From contig CBDIID010000003.1 of the NCBI GenBank assembly GCA_965279515.1, positions 2,272,001 to 2,336,000 of the forward strand: a stretch of 64,000 nucleotides of DNA, in the 5' to 3' direction. Below the pieces are notes generated by a model that saw nothing but the letters and a program-made list of their open reading frames with translations, was not told the DNA's origin and did no database searches. The DNA is from Turneriella sp. (GTDB lineage: Bacteria; Spirochaetota; Leptospiria; Turneriellales; Turneriellaceae). Below, piece by piece: positions 11,798 through 20,214 of this stretch. The stretch's first letter is position 1. Each line of letters begins with the position of its first letter. The translations under genes were made by a program, and so were the position numbers.

Positions 11798-12124
11798 ATG
11801 CTCAGAACGAAAGAAGTCGGCAACTACATAGTAGCATACCTCAAGGGTCGGCTCGATGTGCATATCAGTGGCGAGATTGAAAAAGACCTCATGGCGCTCA
11901 GCGAGAAAAATCCCGAATCTGATTTCATACTGAACCTCGAAGGCATCGAATATATGTCGTCGAGCGGACTGCGCGTGCTCGTCGCCCTGATGCGCCACCT
12001 CAAGGGTCGCAGCCGTAAAATGAAACTTTGCAACATGAATGTTGCGGTGAAAAAAATCTTTGAAGTCGTCGAACTCATGGACATGTTCGATATCTATCCC
12101 TCAGAAGAAGAAGCTCTCAAATAA
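11798..12124 (+). CDS. STAS-domain anti-anti-sigma factor
   Basis: LKGRLD and IEYMSSSGLRVLV (phosphoacceptor Ser region); 108 aa. Confidence 0.9.
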   Translation: MLRTKEVGNYIVAYLKGRLDVHISGEIEKDLMALSEKNPESDFILNLEGIEYMSSSGLRVLVALMRHLKGRSRKMKLCNMNVAVKKIFEVVELMDMFDIYPSEEEALK

Positions 12125-12127
12125 GTT

Positions 12128-13150
12128 ATGGCGTTCATTCTTTCGTCGCTGGCGAATCTTTTCAAGGCGAAAAAGAAGAGACATAATCCCGACGGCGCCG
12201 CGGGGAAACTCAATCGCCCGCTGTCGCGTTCGGAGTTCATGAGTGTCTATGAGAGCATGCCCGAAGCCGCGCGTGCGCAGCTCTTCGCCTCGCTGAACTA
12301 TGAACAAAAAGCGCGGCTGCTCGAACTACTGACCCCGCAAAATAACAACGCCCCCGCAAAACCCGCCGCCGTGACCGAAACGTGGGAGGCAGAAGATTTT
12401 CTGCCGGAAAAAGACGAGCGCAAAATCGCGCGCCTGCGCCATGTCAAAGAAGTGCGCGAACTCAAAGACCTCTATGCCGGTTTTGAAAAATATCCGCCAG
12501 CGGCAGTGGCCGAAATTCTTTCCGGCGAATCGAGCGCGGTCGCCGCGACCGTGCTTCTGCAGCTGAGCCAGCGCTTCGCATCGCAGGTCATTAAAAACCT
12601 GCCTGAACTCTCGCGCGGTGAAATCGTGCGCGCGATGGCATCGGAACGCCATATCGTCAGCGAGGCCCTGGTCGCGCTCGGCAAAAAAATCGCTGCGCTG
12701 CTCGCGGCTCTTCCTGCTGAAATGCCGGCGAGAATCGACGGCGTCAAACATGTGAATGAAATCTTAAAGCTCATGGGTGTCGATGAGGCGGATCGCATCA
12801 CGCGCGAAGTTTATGAGCACGACGAGGTTCTCGCTTCGACCCTGGAAAAAAGCCGTTACAACTTTGAGGACCTGGTCAATCTCAATGCGCGTGACTTTCG
12901 CACCCTGTTTAGCTCGATTCCGGATGAAACACTTTGGGCGCGGGCTCTAAAGGCCATCGACCAGGGTAAAAGAAAATCGCTGCTGGGTAAATTGCCCGTC
13001 AAACGCGCGGGCATGATCGCCAGCGCCATGGCCGAGATCAAGACGACGCGGCTCGACAGCATCGACAAGGCGCGCAGCAAAATTCTGTCGCAGGCACTGC
13101 GCCTCGCTGCACAGCACGAAATCAAATTCGCCGGTAACGGATTACATTAA
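12128..13150 (+). CDS. FliG-like protein (middle and C-terminal domains, divergent)
   Basis: VAEILSGESSAVAATVLLQL, DGVKHVNEILKLM, YNFEDLVNL, WARALK match the FliG M/C layout. Confidence 0.75.
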   Translation: MAFILSSLANLFKAKKKRHNPDGAAGKLNRPLSRSEFMSVYESMPEAARAQLFASLNYEQKARLLELLTPQNNNAPAKPAAVTETWEAEDFLPEKDERKIARLRHVKEVRELKDLYAGFEKYPPAAVAEILSGESSAVAATVLLQLSQRFASQVIKNLPELSRGEIVRAMASERHIVSEALVALGKKIAALLAALPAEMPARIDGVKHVNEILKLMGVDEADRITREVYEHDEVLASTLEKSRYNFEDLVNLNARDFRTLFSSIPDETLWARALKAIDQGKRKSLLGKLPVKRAGMIASAMAEIKTTRLDSIDKARSKILSQALRLAAQHEIKFAGNGLH

Positions 13151-13155
13151 GAATA

Positions 13156-13428
13156 ATGCGCAGGCGCTACGTGGTGTCAGGCCGTGTGCAGGGCGTCGGC
13201 TTCCGTCAGTTTACAGCCGAAAAGGCGCGCCTGCTGAAACTCGCTGGCTGGGTGCGTAATTTACCGGACGGCAATGTGGAAGCCGAAGCCGAAGGTGACG
13301 AACAGGTACTCATTACCTTTGAAAAGGCACTGGGACAAGGCCCGAGCTTCGGCAGGGTCGATGCGGTAAAAAAGGATGACTTACCTGTAAGGGACAGTCT
13401 ACCTGCAATTTTTGAGATTCGCGCATGA
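13156..13428 (+). CDS. acyP: Acylphosphatase
   Basis: VSGRVQGVGFR and GWVRNLPDGNVE signatures. Confidence 0.93.
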   Translation: MRRRYVVSGRVQGVGFRQFTAEKARLLKLAGWVRNLPDGNVEAEAEGDEQVLITFEKALGQGPSFGRVDAVKKDDLPVRDSLPAIFEIRA

Positions 13429-14696
13429 TTCCTCTTTATAATGTTCTGCTTTTGATTGTTTACCCCTTGCTTTGGCTGGTGTCGCGCTTCCATGGGCGAC
13501 TCAGGGAGAACTTTGCCCTGCGCGCGCAGATGCCTGATTTTAACGCGGCGCGGGGAAAACGGCATATTTGGTTTCACGCAGCGTCGGCAGGCGAATTCGA
13601 GCAGGTGCGCGCGGTGGCGCTCGAGATGCGTAAGGCATATAAGAATTTATTTTTTTCATTCAGTTATTTCTCCGATAGCGCCTATCGGGCAAAAAAAAAC
13701 GATAACGTACCCGACCTGCTCTTCGCCCTGCCCTTTGATTTTCCCTGGCGGATGAAACGACTGGTGCGGCAAATGCAACCGGACGCGCTCATCATCGGTA
13801 AATACGACGCGTGGTTAAATCAGACACGCCAGGCGCAGCAGGCGGGTGTCCCGGTTTACCTCGTGAGCGCGACGCTGCCTGCCAAATCGGGGCGCAACAA
13901 ATGGCCGCTGAAAAAGCTGATGCATGCCGTCTATGCGCCGATGCGGAAAATTTTCGCCATCAACGCAGAACATGCGGCGCGCTTTCGGAAAATTTCGTCC
14001 CTGAATGTCGAAGTCGCCGGCGATACGCGCTTCGACGCGATTCAGGCAAGGCTGAAAGAAGCGGCCGCGAGAAAAAAAGACATCGATAGCATAAAAAAAA
14101 TCTGCGCCGGGAAAACGGTGCTGGTCGCGGGTTCAAGCTATGCCGCATCAGAAAGAATGATCGTGGCATACCTCGCACAGAAACCGCGCATCGTAAAAAG
14201 ACCGGTCGTTGCAATCATCGCTCCGCACCATATACGCGAAGAGAAAATTGTGGCTCTCGAAGCGCTGTGCAAAAACGCGGCGTTGACTGTCGCAAGATTC
14301 AGCCAACGCGGGACATCCCACTTTGTTAAAAACCCAGACGTGTTAATCATAGATAGCCTCGGCCTTTTGCCGCTTCTTTACCCGCTGGCCGACGTGGCCT
14401 ATGTCGGGGGCGGTTTTGAGGGCTCGGTGCACTCGGTCATCGAGGCGACGCTTGCTGGTGCGCCGCCCATCACGGGCCCCCATATCGCCAATTCGGCGGA
14501 GGCCCTCGATCTGAAGGCTTTGGGATTGTTGCAGGTGATGGCCCGACCCGACGCGGCAGAGTTTGGCAGGCTTGTGGAAAACCTGTGTAAAAGTCATAAT
14601 GCACTGTCCAAAAAAATGCGGAGCTTCGCCGGAGAAAGATTGGGCGTGGCACGGAGAATTATGCATACTGTGATGGACGACACATTCGGGGAGTAA
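13425..14696 (+). CDS. waaA: 3-deoxy-D-manno-octulosonic acid (Kdo) transferase
   Basis: [38 protein letters not shown]. Confidence 0.85.
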
Positions 14697-14706
14697 AAGA
14701 GGACAC

Positions 14707-15318
14707 ATGGCATACGCACCAATTGTAATTGAGCAGACAAACCGCGGCGAGCGGCATTACGACATCTATTCGCGGCTACTGAAAGACCGCATCGTTTTTT
14801 TGGGATTTCCCATCGACGACGCTTACGCCAATGTCATCATCGCGCAGCTGTTGTTCCTGGAATCTGAAGATCCTGAAAAAGATATCTATCTTTATATCAA
14901 CTCACCGGGGGGCTATGTCTCCTCAGGACTCGCGATCTATGATACCATGCAGCTGATTCGCCCCGACGTGCGCACTGTTTGCACCGGGCAGGCATCGAAC
15001 ATCGCGGCGCTTATTCTCGCGGCCGGCACAAAAGGCAAGCGCTCGGCGCTGCCTCATTCGCGCGTTCTGCTGCACCAGCCGGTGGGCGGCGCCTCAGGAC
15101 AGGCCGCCGACATCGAGATACAGGCACGCGAAGTGCTGCGCATCCGCGATACCCTGAACGGCCTTTACCAGAAACATACCGGTCTCACACTCGAGAAAAT
15201 TGAAGAAGAGACTGCGCGTGACCTCTACATGGACGGCCCCGAAGCCATGAAATGGGGCCTCATTGATTATGTCATATCAGGCCGCGTAGAAAATGCCTCC
15301 AAAGAATTGGCCGGTTAA
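14707..15318 (+). CDS. clpP: ClpP-family proteolytic subunit; catalytic Ser appears replaced by Asn
   Basis: [34 protein letters not shown]-like AGAGG upstream. Confidence 0.93.
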
Positions 15319-15337
15319 ACGATAATTAAGAGATAAC

Positions 15338-16702
15338 ATGGCTGAGCGACGTTCGTATGATTCGGGTAACCATTGTTCCTTCTGCGGTAAAGAACAGGCA
15401 AAAGTAAACCGCCTGATTGCCGGCCCCGGCGTGCACATCTGCGATGAATGCGTCGTGCTGTGCAACGGCATTCTCGCCGACGATCTCGAAAAACAGGCAA
15501 CACCGGCAACTGTACAAAAACTGCCGAAACCGGCGGAAATCAAGAATATCCTCGACGAATACGTCATCGGGCAAGATTCCGCGAAGCGCGCACTCTCGGT
15601 CGCGGTCTATAACCACTACAAACGCCTGCAGTACGAAAAAGACCAGGCGACCAAGCTCGGCGGCAAGTTTCTGCGCAAACATGCGACGGCCGACCAAAGC
15701 GGCGTTGAAATCGATAAGTCGAACATCCTGCTCATCGGCCCCACGGGTTCGGGCAAAACCTTTCTCGCCCAAACGCTCGCCCGCATTTTGCAGGTACCCT
15801 GCGCCCTTGTCGACGCCACCGCGCTTACCGAAGCGGGTTATGTCGGCGAAGACGTAGAAAACATTCTGCTGCGTCTTTACCAAAACGCCGACGCCAACGT
15901 CGAAAAGGCGCAAACCGGTATCATCTATATCGACGAAATCGATAAAATTGCCCGCAAGTCGGATAACCCCTCGATCACGCGCGACGTTTCTGGCGAAGGT
16001 GTTCAACAGGCGCTTTTGAAGATTATCGAAGGCACTGTCGCAAGTGTTCCTCCCGTCGGCGGCCGCAAACACCCGCACCAGGATTTTATCCAGATGGACA
16101 CGCGCAATATTCTCTTTATCTGCGGCGGCGCCTTCGAAGGCCTCGACAAAGTCGTGCAGAAGCGCGTCGATAAGTCGACGCTGGGTTTTGACTACAAAGC
16201 ACCCAAGAAAAAAGAGCAGCAGAGCGAATACCTGCGCCTGGTGAACCCCGACGACCTGATGAAGTATGGCCTGATTCCTGAATTCATCGGCCGCCTGCCG
16301 ATCATCCGTTCGCTCGACAACCTCGACGAAGCGGCGATGGTGAAAATTCTCACCGAACCGCGCAACGCGCTCATCAAACAATACAAGAAGATCTTCGACC
16401 TTGAAGGCATTAAACTCAGCTTCGAAGACGATGCCATTAAGGCAATCGCCGCAAAAGCCCTCATCCGCCAGACCGGTGCACGTGGGCTGCGGGCAATTCT
16501 CGAAGATTCCATGATGGATCTCATGTTCGAGATACCGACGATGATCGGCGTCGACGAAGTCATTATCACACGCGCGATGATTGAAACAGGCGAAAAAGCA
16601 CGCATCATTTCACGCGCAGAGACCGATAAAGAACGTACCAAGAAGAGCAAGGCCTCCACTAACGAAGAGACCTACCTCTTACCTCCGGAGAAAATGGCTT
16701 AA
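15338..16702 (+). CDS. clpX: ATP-dependent Clp protease ATPase ClpX
   Basis: Zn finger CSFCG..ICDEC, Walker [36 protein letters not shown]. Confidence 0.97.
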
Positions 16703-19107
16703 TGGCAGAATCTTCCGCTATCCGCTACCCATTGTTGCCACTGCGCGACATGGTTATTTACCCGGGTAGCGTCACGTCCATCTTTGTCGGCCGTGAAAAA
16801 TCGATGGAAGCAACGCGGCGCGCGATGGACGCCGACCGCAAGATTATTCTCGCCACACAGCGCAACGCTGAGATCACCATACCGGGTTTAAGCGATCTCT
16901 ATGAAACCGGCGTCGCTGCAGAAATTCTGCAGCTGCTGAAGATGCCCGATAACACGTATAAAATTCTCATAGAGGGCCTCAGCCGCGTACGCCTCGTCGA
17001 AATCGATGACAACGACGAGAAATGCCCGATCGGTGTCGCCGTCTCTGCCATGTCGGTGCAGCCCGCCGGCGAAAAAGAACTCCACCTCTATGAGAAATCT
17101 ACCGCCAAACTCGTCGACGCCTTTGAGCGCCTGAACGAGCAGCAGACCTTCATGCCCAGCGACAACTGGCGTGAGATTCGCGCGAAAGATGAACCCGAAC
17201 GACTGATCCACGCCATCGCCGAAAGCCTCAGGATTCCCTTCATCGAACAGCAGGATATTCTCGGCACCGATAACCTCTGGGAACGCGCCGAAAAAGTCAA
17301 AGCGGCGATGGAAAACCAGCTCGAACTGTCACGCCTCGAAGGCCAGATCCACGACAAGGTGCGCGCGCAGCTCGACAAGATGCAGCGCCAGTATTACCTG
17401 CAAGAGCAGATCAAGGCGATCCGCGAAGAGATGGGCGAAACCGAGCCCGACGAATTTGAAACGTTAAGAAAAAAAGCCAAGGCGAAAAACTGGCCAGACG
17501 ATATCCGCGCGAAAGCCGAGTCGGAGATCCGCAAGCTCGAAAAGATGCCGCCGATGTCGGCCGAATCGGGCGTGATCCGCAACTACCTCGACTGGTTGCT
17601 CGATCTGCCCTTTTCAGAGACGACGGTCGACAATGACGATATTTCCAAAGCCGAAAAGATTCTCGAAGAGAGCCATTATGGTCTCGAAAAAATCAAAGAC
17701 CGCATTCTCGAATTTATCGCCGTAAAACAATTGTCATCCGCCATGCGCGGCCCGATTCTTTGCCTCGTCGGCCCCCCGGGTGTCGGTAAGACCAGCCTCG
17801 CAAAGTCACTCGCCGAGGCCCTCGACCGTAAATTTGTGCGCATCGCCCTGGGCGGTGTGCGCGACGAAGCAGAGATTCGTGGCCATCGCCGCACCTATAT
17901 CGGTTCGATGCCCGGCCGCATCATCGCTGCACTCAAAAAAGTCAAAGTCAAGAACCCGGTGATTCTGCTCGATGAGATCGATAAGATTTCGTCGGATTTC
18001 CGCGGTAACCCGGCGGCGGCGCTGCTTGAAGTACTCGACCCCGAACAGAACAAAGAATTCACCGATCACTACCTCGACATTCCCTTTGATTTGTCACAGG
18101 CACTCTTTGTCGCCACGGCGAACGTCACACATTCTATTCCAGAGCCCTTACTCGACCGCCTTGAAATCATCCAGCTCTCAGGCTACACCGAGATGGAAAA
18201 AATCCAGATCGCAAACAAGTATCTCATTCCACGCCAGATCGAAGAAAACGGCATCAAGGGTGTCGACCTGCAATACACAAATAAATCCCTCGCCTACATT
18301 CTGCGCCACTATACCAAGGAAGCCGGCGTGCGCCAGGCAGAGCGTGAGCTAGCGCAGATTGCACGCAAAATCGCGCGCGAAGTTGTTGAGAAGAAACAAT
18401 CCGGAACCCAGGTGCTGGATAAACAATCGATCATCCAGTATCTCGGGCCCGCAAAATATCTCTATACGCGCAAAGAACTCGAAAACCCGGTCGGCAAGGT
18501 TTCGGGCCTCGCCTGGACATCTACCGGCGGCGATATACTCAATATCGAAGTGGCGCTCGCGCACGGCAAGGGCAAACTCTCGCTCACCGGTAACCTCGGC
18601 GACGTCATGAAAGAATCGGCGAACATTGCGCTGGGCTTTGTGCGCACGCAGGCCAATATTCTCGGTCTCAGCGCCGACTTCTTCGAAAAAAATGACATCT
18701 TTATCCACGTACCCGAAGGCGCGATTCCGAAAGACGGGCCGTCGGCGGGGATTACCCTCGTGACGGCGATTATTTCAGCGCTGACGCAGCGCGGCGTGCT
18801 CAGCCACATTGCCATGACCGGCGAAGTCACGCTGCGCGGCAACGTGCTGCCGATCGGCGGCCTCAAGGAAAAAGTGCTCGCGGCATTCCGCGGCGGCATC
18901 ACGCACGTGATTTGCCCGAAAGACAATGAAAAAGACTTTGCGGAAATTCCGCAGAGCATACGCCAGCAGATGCAGTTCCATTTTGTCTCACACGTGCGAG
19001 AAGTGATTGTACTCGCGCTGGTGCAAGGCTCTTCTATTTTCCAGGACAAGGCGGGACTCGCCTTCTACGCGACACATCTCACCGGTTCTACTACGCAACC
19101 GATGTAA
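16702..19107 (+). CDS. lon: Lon (La) ATP-dependent protease
   Basis: LPLRD N-domain, GPPGVGKTS, IRGHRRTYIGSMPG, PKDGPSAG (catalytic Ser), IGGLKEK (catalytic Lys). Confidence 0.97.
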   Translation: MAESSAIRYPLLPLRDMVIYPGSVTSIFVGREKSMEATRRAMDADRKIILATQRNAEITIPGLSDLYETGVAAEILQLLKMPDNTYKILIEGLSRVRLVEIDDNDEKCPIGVAVSAMSVQPAGEKELHLYEKSTAKLVDAFERLNEQQTFMPSDNWREIRAKDEPERLIHAIAESLRIPFIEQQDILGTDNLWERAEKVKAAMENQLELSRLEGQIHDKVRAQLDKMQRQYYLQEQIKAIREEMGETEPDEFETLRKKAKAKNWPDDIRAKAESEIRKLEKMPPMSAESGVIRNYLDWLLDLPFSETTVDNDDISKAEKILEESHYGLEKIKDRILEFIAVKQLSSAMRGPILCLVGPPGVGKTSLAKSLAEALDRKFVRIALGGVRDEAEIRGHRRTYIGSMPGRIIAALKKVKVKNPVILLDEIDKISSDFRGNPAAALLEVLDPEQNKEFTDHYLDIPFDLSQALFVATANVTHSIPEPLLDRLEIIQLSGYTEMEKIQIANKYLIPRQIEENGIKGVDLQYTNKSLAYILRHYTKEAGVRQAERELAQIARKIAREVVEKKQSGTQVLDKQSIIQYLGPAKYLYTRKELENPVGKVSGLAWTSTGGDILNIEVALAHGKGKLSLTGNLGDVMKESANIALGFVRTQANILGLSADFFEKNDIFIHVPEGAIPKDGPSAGITLVTAIISALTQRGVLSHIAMTGEVTLRGNVLPIGGLKEKVLAAFRGGITHVICPKDNEKDFAEIPQSIRQQMQFHFVSHVREVIVLALVQGSSIFQDKAGLAFYATHLTGSTTQPM

Positions 19108-19120
19108 CCCCACCCCGGCC
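19105..19120. repeat. Truncated copy of the C/G-rich REP-like element
   Basis: TAACCCCACCCCGGCC is the exact reverse complement of 29547-29562. Confidence 0.55.
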
Positions 19121-19122
19121 GG

Positions 19123-20214
19123 TTACGAACCGGCCCAGTCTGCGCCCGAGCATACCGCGGGACTTTCGGTTTTACTGGCATTGTCGAAATGCGTTCTGTA
19201 CTTCACTCCCGGTCTGTCTTTATAGTACTTTGACCAGGCCAGACGATCGCGGCATTTGGTTGTGACGACCGCTTCGCCGTTTTCGCCGCGCGCCACTTCA
19301 TAGATTGCAAACTGGAAGCTGCCACCGCTGTGATAGACGATCACCGCCTTGTGCTTCTTATTCTCAGGCGCGGTCACAGCCTTCAGCAATTGTTCAAACT
19401 GCGCTTTCGAGGTATACCCCGGGTCGACGGCGTTGGAGACATGGATGACGCTGATATCAGACAGGGGCTGCACCTGCACATCGTGCAGAAACGACAGTTG
19501 CAATTGGATCGCGCCCAGCATGCGGAAGTATATGGGAAAACGCTGGAAAACGAGCCGGCAATCAGGCCGGGTCGGCCAGTAACAAAAGCTGTCGACGGTG
19601 ATACCCTCTTCACGCGGGCGGATCTGCTCTTCGTCGCCGAAATTCGCCGACCAGCGTAGTTCGAGGTCTTTGAACTTCAGGGGCTGTTCTTTCAGTAAAC
19701 GTGACAGCACCTGCATTTGCAGGTCAAGAATGCGCCAGTCGATGTCGATCGACACCCATTTATTGCAGCCCATCGTCGTGTGCATAAAATACAGTTGGGC
19801 AAAACCCACTGAATAACAGTCCTTTTGCCCGGGATAAAACTCGCGCACCATGGAGAATGCCTTCTTGACAGCGAGGTCATTCATCGTAAAAAAATTATAA
19901 CAGCCCGCAATGATCTCCGAAAGATAGGCGTTATATTTCTGTGTCCACAGCAAGGGTGAGAATTTTTTGAAAGCGTAGATATTGCCGGGAACCTTTTTAT
20001 GCAATACCTGGCAGACGGGTTCGCTGTCCTCCGTCATTTTTTTAAACAGCGCCTCGGTTTCGGCCTGATTGTATTTTGCCTTCAGCTCGGGAAAAATCTC
20101 GCGGAGCTTTTCAGAAACCACAAGGCTGAGTTCCGGTTTTTCTTTCTTTTTAGTGCAGGAGAAACAAAACCCGGTAACTATGAATAGAATCAGGGGTAGG
20201 CGCAGCGAAAACAC
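19123..20214 (-). CDS. Hypothetical lipoprotein
   Basis: 363-aa ORF with hydrophobic signal and CFSC lipobox-like motif followed by a Lys run. Confidence 0.75.
   Translation of the reverse strand: MFSLRLPLILFIVTGFCFSCTKKKEKPELSLVVSEKLREIFPELKAKYNQAETEALFKKMTEDSEPVCQVLHKKVPGNIYAFKKFSPLLWTQKYNAYLSEIIAGCYNFFTMNDLAVKKAFSMVREFYPGQKDCYSVGFAQLYFMHTTMGCNKWVSIDIDWRILDLQMQVLSRLLKEQPLKFKDLELRWSANFGDEEQIRPREEGITVDSFCYWPTRPDCRLVFQRFPIYFRMLGAIQLQLSFLHDVQVQPLSDISVIHVSNAVDPGYTSKAQFEQLLKAVTAPENKKHKAVIVYHSGGSFQFAIYEVARGENGEAVVTTKCRDRLAWSKYYKDRPGVKYRTHFDNASKTESPAVCSGADWAGS

Follow-up and report, generated by a model that had tools for sequence, protein, structure and literature searches.

The clpP gene of the standard clpP-clpX-lon locus is read by annotators as encoding an active protease. 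The window analysed here, a stretch of 64,000 nucleotides from a Turneriella genome, carries such a locus in which the ClpP has lost its nucleophile, while a second copy encoded elsewhere is perfect. This raises the question of what becomes of a housekeeping ClpP, encoded beside its ATPase, when the residue that should cut is absent. The locus is organized as follows.

13425..14696, + strand: Kdo-transferase-like gene, below curated cut-offs, given for context only
14707..15318, + strand: clpP1, 203 residues, orthologue of the clpX-linked ClpPs, with the nucleophile position occupied by Asn (PRK00277 above cut-off)
14719..14763, + strand: N-terminal pore hairpin, residues 5-19, conserved in ClpP1 and absent from the ClpP2 paralogues
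14995..15003, + strand: codons 97-99, TCG AAC ATC (Ser-Asn-Ile), with Asn98 for the catalytic Ser and Ile99 for Met
15073..15075, + strand: His123, the retained triad histidine, 25 residues past Asn98; kept in 68/68 non-Ser homologues
15220..15222, + strand: Asp172, the retained triad aspartate, directly after Arg171; kept in 26/26 Asn98 copies of the Turneriella order, whereas non-Ser copies from family f8 have lost it
15338..16702, + strand: clpX, 454 residues, starting 19 bases past the clpP1 stop
16181..16189, + strand: ClpX docking tripeptide Leu-Gly-Phe, residues 282-284 (I/L/M-G-F in 73/73 ClpX rows)
16702..19107, + strand: lon protease gene, whose start overlaps the clpX stop by one base

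The clpX-linked ClpP and its codon 98

In profile searches the product of clpP1 matches peptidase S14 (PF00574) with 258.9 bits, over the cut-off; it lies below the equivalog cut-off of TIGR00493 (296.9 vs 308.6 bits) and passes the broader PRK00277 profile (303 bits). Its relatives at 92-93% identity are Turneriella proteins. An AlphaFold model built on 72 sequences (pLDDT 80; a fold from the single sequence reached pLDDT 40) adopts the ClpP fold, with TM scores of 0.84-0.92 to solved ClpPs, and includes the N-terminal hairpin. A gapless alignment to solved ClpPs places Asn98 in the column of the catalytic serine, and in the model this residue occupies the turn between a strand (residues 88-97) and a helix (residues 99-106). 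Ser97 is encoded at 14995-14997, Asn98 (AAC) at 14998-15000 and Ile99 at 15001-15003. Among the features expected of an active canonical ClpP, ClpP1 has the His and the Asp and lacks the catalytic Ser at the strand-helix turn. The first-pass annotation, made from the letters of this stretch, had read codon 98 as AAC, an Asn at the catalytic Ser, with the His and Asp motifs retained and the His 25 residues further on. The open reading frame, the gapless alignment and the orthologues confirm that reading, with His123 and Asp172 as the retained pair, and the codon is not AGC, the outcome that the annotation had named as counting against it.

Neither a sequencing error nor pseudogene decay accounts for the substitution. 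The former is ruled out by the orthologues recovered from 20 Turneriella-family genomes (the one miss is a genome 54% complete), since Ser-Asn-Ile is found in 19/19 of them with both Asn codons in use (AAC in 12, AAT in 7), which bears out the earlier argument against a lone misread base. Contigs of two runs also match 14600-15500 without a difference, though they may be the source of the sequence itself. Decay is ruled out by the open frame and by a median dN/dS of 0.022 for clpP1 (0.036 for clpP2), computed from 55 of the 78 pairs within the genus. Pairs with a saturated or very small dS had been dropped, and with dS at about 1.5 the figures are rough. The gene is under strong purifying selection (dN/dS about 0.02). 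The alignment of orthologues that the annotation had proposed shows Asn98 to be lineage-wide, so that the substitution itself stands and its treatment as a peculiarity of one genome does not, as it is shared by whole families. Chance is likewise an inadequate explanation, because the position is occupied by Ser in 77/77 ClpPs outside the class Leptospirae.

Some further positions of ClpP1 also depart from the usual pattern. Residue 170 (15214-15216), usually an Asp or Glu of the bridge between the rings, is an Ala in this protein and in those of three close relatives. Tyr70 (14914-14916) and Tyr154 (15166-15168) are nearly fixed among ClpP1 proteins throughout the class but seldom occur in canonical ClpPs; we take both positions to lie near the substrate groove, which they could narrow.

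The gene clpX lies directly downstream of clpP1 in 19/19 family loci. On the upstream side, 12128-14696 holds a FliG-like gene, an acylphosphatase gene and the Kdo-transferase-like gene, the last of which directly precedes clpP1 in 14/14 genomes of the genus. In f8 loci clpP1 is preceded by the trigger factor gene, as reported likewise for Leptospira, an arrangement not seen here. Rfam gave no match within 12000-20000, and promoter and terminator matches were at chance level only.

Distribution and history of the substitution

A search of 190 genomes of the class Leptospirae gave a readable ClpP1 from 109: 32/34 in the Turneriella order, 40/42 in f8, which is presumably the Leptonema group, and 37/114 in f9, which we take to be the Leptospiraceae from a motif match to named Leptospira proteins. 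In the class as a whole 50 of the 109 clpX-linked ClpP1 proteins lack Ser98, and only 22 have the full triad. The 32 copies of the order comprise 26 that read Asn-His-Asp and six, from families f6 and f7, that read Ser-His-Asp. Among the 40 from f8, 24 are without Ser98 (22 Asn, 2 His), Asp172 is also lost in all 23 readable non-Ser copies, and the full triad is present in four. Ser98 is found in 37/37 copies of f9, and 23 of these have Asn172 (loci such as L120-L142); an Asn in place of the triad Asp has been described for Listeria ClpP1 (PMC9765437). There are also single f9 cases with Ala or Tyr at 172. Two f8 loci, L159 (G031) and L201 (G024), illustrate a third route to a broken triad, with Ser98 kept, His123 replaced by Tyr or Asn, and Asp172 lost. 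A homologue search that yielded 121 protein clusters gave Asn at position 98 in 66, Ser in 53 and His in 2. As a control, 40 loci were chosen across families of other spirochaete classes; the clpX-linked ClpPs in this sample are Ser-His-Asp in 37/37, as are three unlinked ClpPs, with one unlinked ClpP that is not.

The history of position 98 was followed on a ClpP1+ClpX tree of 73 rows, built after the trait columns had been deleted; 28 rows that were near-duplicates or surplus and 8 with too little ClpX were left out. The 67 rows from the class group together, apart from the six outgroup rows (SH-aLRT 100), and ClpP1 is the Leptospirae clpX-linked ClpP1 orthologue, grouping with the Leptospira ClpP1. 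On this tree the state at 98 changes between Ser and non-Ser at least seven times. AU tests on quick trees reject both a single origin for all 30 non-Ser rows of the 73 (p 1.5e-05) and a single non-Ser clade within f8 (15 rows, p 3e-11). The Ser-bearing f6 and f7 are nested among Asn lineages (96/96), which raises the possibility that their Ser98 was regained by reversion; the AU test did not reject the alternative, in which the 14 Asn rows of the order are held together (p 0.107). At position 99 the Ser copies of f6 and f7 have Val, and at 170 they have Ser or Gln in place of an acidic residue; they need not be active as peptidases.

The codons bear on why it is Asn that recurs. Ser98 is encoded by AGY in 22/22 copies from the order and f8, one step from AAY, and by TCN in 37/37 copies from f9. 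A single transition would equally turn an AGY serine codon into one for Gly, yet none of the 68 non-Ser homologues has Gly; Asn therefore looks selected and not merely reachable. Speculatively, Asn might have been kept as it suits the tight turn, or it might bond His123 and thereby hold the ring extended.

The neighbouring Ser97 is an unlikely substitute nucleophile, judging from its distribution. In the order it accompanies Asn98 in 26/26 copies, encoded by TCN in some and by AGY in others. Among the 68 non-Ser98 homologues the residue is Ser in 45, Ala in 19, Tyr in 3 and Leu in 1, so that Ser97 is not conserved among them, and the outcome that the annotation had set against its own reading, Ser97 acting as the nucleophile, did not appear. 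Furthermore, Ser97 stands beside an intact Ser98 in 31 of 37 f9 copies, and so predates the loss of Ser98.

Intact paralogues and the putative docking face

An active-type ClpP encoded elsewhere had been predicted, and the genome search that was proposed to find a second clpP with an intact triad recovered three. The genome has four PF00574 genes in all; the other three, at loci separate from clpP1, are about 40% identical to ClpP1 and have Ser-His-Asp intact. Two of them are extra copies, 79% and 75% identical to the main clpP2 (L003:1405-2076 and L004:1468-2082, near 1285000 and 3785800 of G000:C3), and are possibly interchangeable catalytic rings; most of the genus has one clpP2, and G009 has two.

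Copies of the ClpP2 type have Ser-His-Asp in 70/70 cases (62/62 and 8/8 more), and an intact paralogue is present in 46 of the 50 genomes with a non-Ser ClpP1, counting for G034 and G060 a third, more distant paralogue. As for the other four, no intact paralogue was found in G013 and G001 (92% and 83% complete), unread bases cover the motif in G176, and G049, which is 54% complete, lay outside the ClpP2 search. A true loss of clpP2 in G013 is unsupported: the two genes that usually neighbour it are absent as well, which suggests a gap in the assembly. At the other extreme of completeness stand two near-closed relatives, G016 (one contig) and G007 (two contigs). Each has an intact ClpP2 gene beside the Asn copy and no further clpP, and ClpP2 is therefore the sole candidate for a serine catalyst there.

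In f8 we also observed a third clpP type with an intact triad, in which the Ser is followed by Phe instead of Met (L262, L263, L264, L331, L334, L335). In L336, L337 and eight more f8 genomes, clpP2 is located 6-9 kb away from tig-clpP1-clpX, behind a small gene and one for enolase, and in L336 and L337 it is on the opposite strand. It lies within 10 kb of clpP1 in 10 of 28 f8 genomes, and in most of the others the two are on different contigs.

The two kinds of subunit also differ in the features for ATPase docking. We compared conservation with 77 canonical ClpPs at positions that we take, from ClpP structures, to form the ClpX pocket. The residues R23, L24, D27, L49, Y63, T80, L115 and I190 are kept in 26/26 Asn98 copies of the order, as are those of the hairpin (P5-I6-V7-I8-E9, G14, E15, Y18, D19). 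In the ClpP2 of the order, Gln29 and Phe63 are found in 32/32, position 27 is mostly K, N or R, position 115 is mostly Phe, and a variable charged N terminus stands in place of the hairpin. By these residues ClpP1 is a putative docking face without a nucleophile, and ClpP2 a triad with a degraded docking face. The docking features, kept in the Asn subunit and absent from its paralogues, are in line with the ClpX-docking ring that the first-pass annotation had suggested. Thr93 and Ser113 of ClpP1 are smaller than the corresponding residues of many canonical ClpPs. Between ClpP1 and ClpP2 the charges at handle positions 137 and 141 are swapped; as this could be a swap within one helix, we do not count it as a sign that the two pair.

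A predicted docking ring and its alternatives

We propose, with a probability of roughly 0.65, that ClpP1 assembles into a catalytically dead ring, on which ClpX docks and which activates a ring of ClpP2 that does the cutting. An amide cannot serve as the nucleophile of a ClpP, so the Asn98 ring should not cut, and it is very likely that ClpP1 is without peptidase activity. That it exists in a complex with ClpP2 we also consider likely, and docking of ClpX on its ring is probable, if with slightly less assurance. Seven ClpP1 subunits would make up one ring, stacked on one ring of seven ClpP2, and all active sites would be supplied by the separately encoded ClpP2. ClpX, and probably a ClpA-like ATPase with an Ile-Gly-Phe motif that is also encoded in the genome, would bind the ClpP1 face and thread the substrate through the ClpP1 pore, while the handles of ClpP1 would hold ClpP2 in its active shape.

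Such a predicted arrangement resembles the ClpP1P2 systems of Streptomyces and Mycobacterium, in which labour is divided between a ring that cuts and a ring that binds the ATPase, and in which the serine is removable: a Ser-to-Ala change in the docking subunit is reported to leave full activity in Streptomyces (PMC9765437), and the activity of ClpP2 to be non-essential in Mycobacterium tuberculosis (PMC9067928). However, the loss of the serine was engineered in those systems, whereas here it is natural, fixed and in the ClpP of the clpX operon; and the docking ring of Streptomyces still has its triad (PMC9765437), unlike Turneriella ClpP1 with its missing Ser. A canonical subunit on which ClpX docks and which pairs with a second, divergent ring, as is predicted here, is also known from Pseudomonas aeruginosa, where ClpX is reported to bind only ClpP1 and the ClpP1 handles to activate ClpP2 (PMC12451819), and from Chlamydia trachomatis, where ClpX prefers the subunit that, as here, shares its operon, and where mutation of a single Ser leaves 40% of the activity (PMC6773864). 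Both rings are described as catalytically active in these two species, unlike what we predict for Turneriella. The locus would thus represent, in nature, the final stage of an asymmetry for which engineered mutants have until now been the only demonstration.

Like ClpR of cyanobacteria and plastids and like Actinoplanes ClpP3, ClpP1 is one of the ClpP homologues that are conserved despite a defective triad. The earlier suggestion of a ClpR-like subunit holds for the missing nucleophile; it does not hold for sequence or descent, ClpP1 being an orthologue of the ordinary clpX-linked protein. Against PRK12552, presumably the ClpR-like family, it scores 190 bits (cut-off 263), far from its score with PRK00277. 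The triad of ClpR is described as broadly missing, whereas ClpP1 keeps the His and Asp, and Actinoplanes ClpP3 is reported to lack the pocket aromatics as well, whereas ClpP1 keeps both pocket and hairpin (PMC13689560).

The proposal has to be weighed against what is known from Leptospira interrogans. There, as here, clpP1 (LIC11417) is beside clpX (LIC11418) and clpP2 (LIC11951) is apart (PMC12493166, 10.1101/2020.08.05.237438), and named Leptospira ClpP1 proteins are 68-70% identical to that of Turneriella. The two L. interrogans proteins are reported to be inactive alone and active together (PMC12493166). Unlike in Turneriella, Ser98 is kept and needed in that species: the S98A change in ClpP1 abolishes ClpP1P2 activity even with ClpX or ADEP1, and the authors of this preprint regard the ClpP1 sites as more critical (10.1101/2020.08.05.237438). 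The M. tuberculosis paper notes an L. interrogans allele without critical residues and likens it to ClpR (PMC9067928). A site that is essential in L. interrogans, yet dropped repeatedly by sister lineages, is a puzzle; either Asn does what Ala cannot, or ClpP2 here might be independent of its partner's serine. Other observations also count against a docking and activating ring: His123 and Asp172 have been retained throughout the order, as would be expected of a catalytic site; the six genomes of f6 and f7 have the full triad; and four of the 50 genomes with a non-Ser ClpP1 yielded no readable intact paralogue.

A different reading, which we think unlikely, is that the Asn98 subunit is a dead scaffold ring and that ATPase docking takes place on ClpP2, or on the faces of both rings. 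It gains from a homology model of the Leptospira complex in which the docking pockets are on ClpP2 (10.1101/2020.08.05.237438) and from the ELISA affinity of ClpA, equal for both L. interrogans isoforms, with ClpC reported to behave likewise (PMC12493166); both results weigh against our proposal. The homology model, however, was based on the Mycobacterium complex, ClpX prefers the canonical subunit in Chlamydia and Pseudomonas, and the pocket and hairpin that all 26 Asn98 copies share with canonical ClpPs are changed in ClpP2.

It is improbable that ClpP1 and ClpP2 are mixed within rings to form a symmetric barrel with fewer active sites. Mixed rings with dead subunits do occur, as in the ClpP3/ClpR rings of cyanobacteria, with three to four dead subunits (summarised in PMC13689560), but the subunits considered here have diverged at pocket residues that span neighbouring subunits, comparable bacterial systems have one ring of each kind, and clpP1 and clpP2 are at separate loci. 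To an equal degree we doubt that ClpX and dead ClpP1 constitute a non-cutting cage of their own, acting as a trap, an unfoldase aid or a brake, with ClpP2 working without ClpP1. The linkage of clpP1 to clpX and lon, away from clpP2, would fit such a cage, as would the failure of serine-less ClpP1 to support ClpP2 in L. interrogans and the presence of other ATP-dependent proteases, two Lon and HslUV. Yet ClpP2 lacks the docking residues, is inactive alone in Leptospira and Pseudomonas, and has an invariant triad wherever ClpP1 is broken, which fits dependence. The genes hslU and hslV are far apart in the genome, and the second lon is 42% identical (G000:C3:831690-833100, 3226737-3227249, near 2070000). 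Least likely of all is that ClpP1 still cuts, by way of Ser97 or of a water activated by His123 and Asp172: the order does keep all three residues, but Ser97 is inconstant and common beside Ser98, ClpP1 of the L. interrogans type has Ser97 and is yet dead as S98A, the readable non-Ser f8 copies are without Asp172, and the model puts residue 97 at the end of the strand and 98 at the turn.

Returning to the docking and activating ring, a wider scheme is conceivable, which we put forward only tentatively as it seems to us possible rather than probable. Throughout the class, the housekeeping ClpP ring may be on its way to serving solely as an adaptor for docking and activation. It would be getting there along several separate routes, with Ser98 replaced by Asn or His and Asp172 by Val, Leu, Ile or Asn, and Asn would be selected because an Asn-His-Asp 'locked triad' would hold the ring in a ClpP2-activating shape, beyond what the Ala mutant can do; in f6 and f7 the dead site would have reverted to Ser-His-Asp. 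The relatives span Ser-His-Asp, Ser-His-Asn, Ser-His-Val, Asn-His-Asp and Asn-His-Val, a series with which to ask whether the serine of a docking ring cuts or only signals, and which also bears on how pseudoenzymes arise and perhaps revert.

Dead Clp subunits have so far been known as extra paralogues, such as ClpR. A literature search that covered part of the Leptospira ClpP studies returned no report of Asn at the ClpP nucleophile in Turneriella or its relatives. What appears to be new, going by the sequences compared here, is a housekeeping ClpP of the clpX operon that is predicted to be dead in whole families, with repeated switching of its state. In another spirochaete class the ClpP of locus L303 (G242:C40:11295-11876), with no clpX within the fetched flank, has Asp at the Ser site, Lys at the His site and a changed glycine loop, and its pocket residues are intact.
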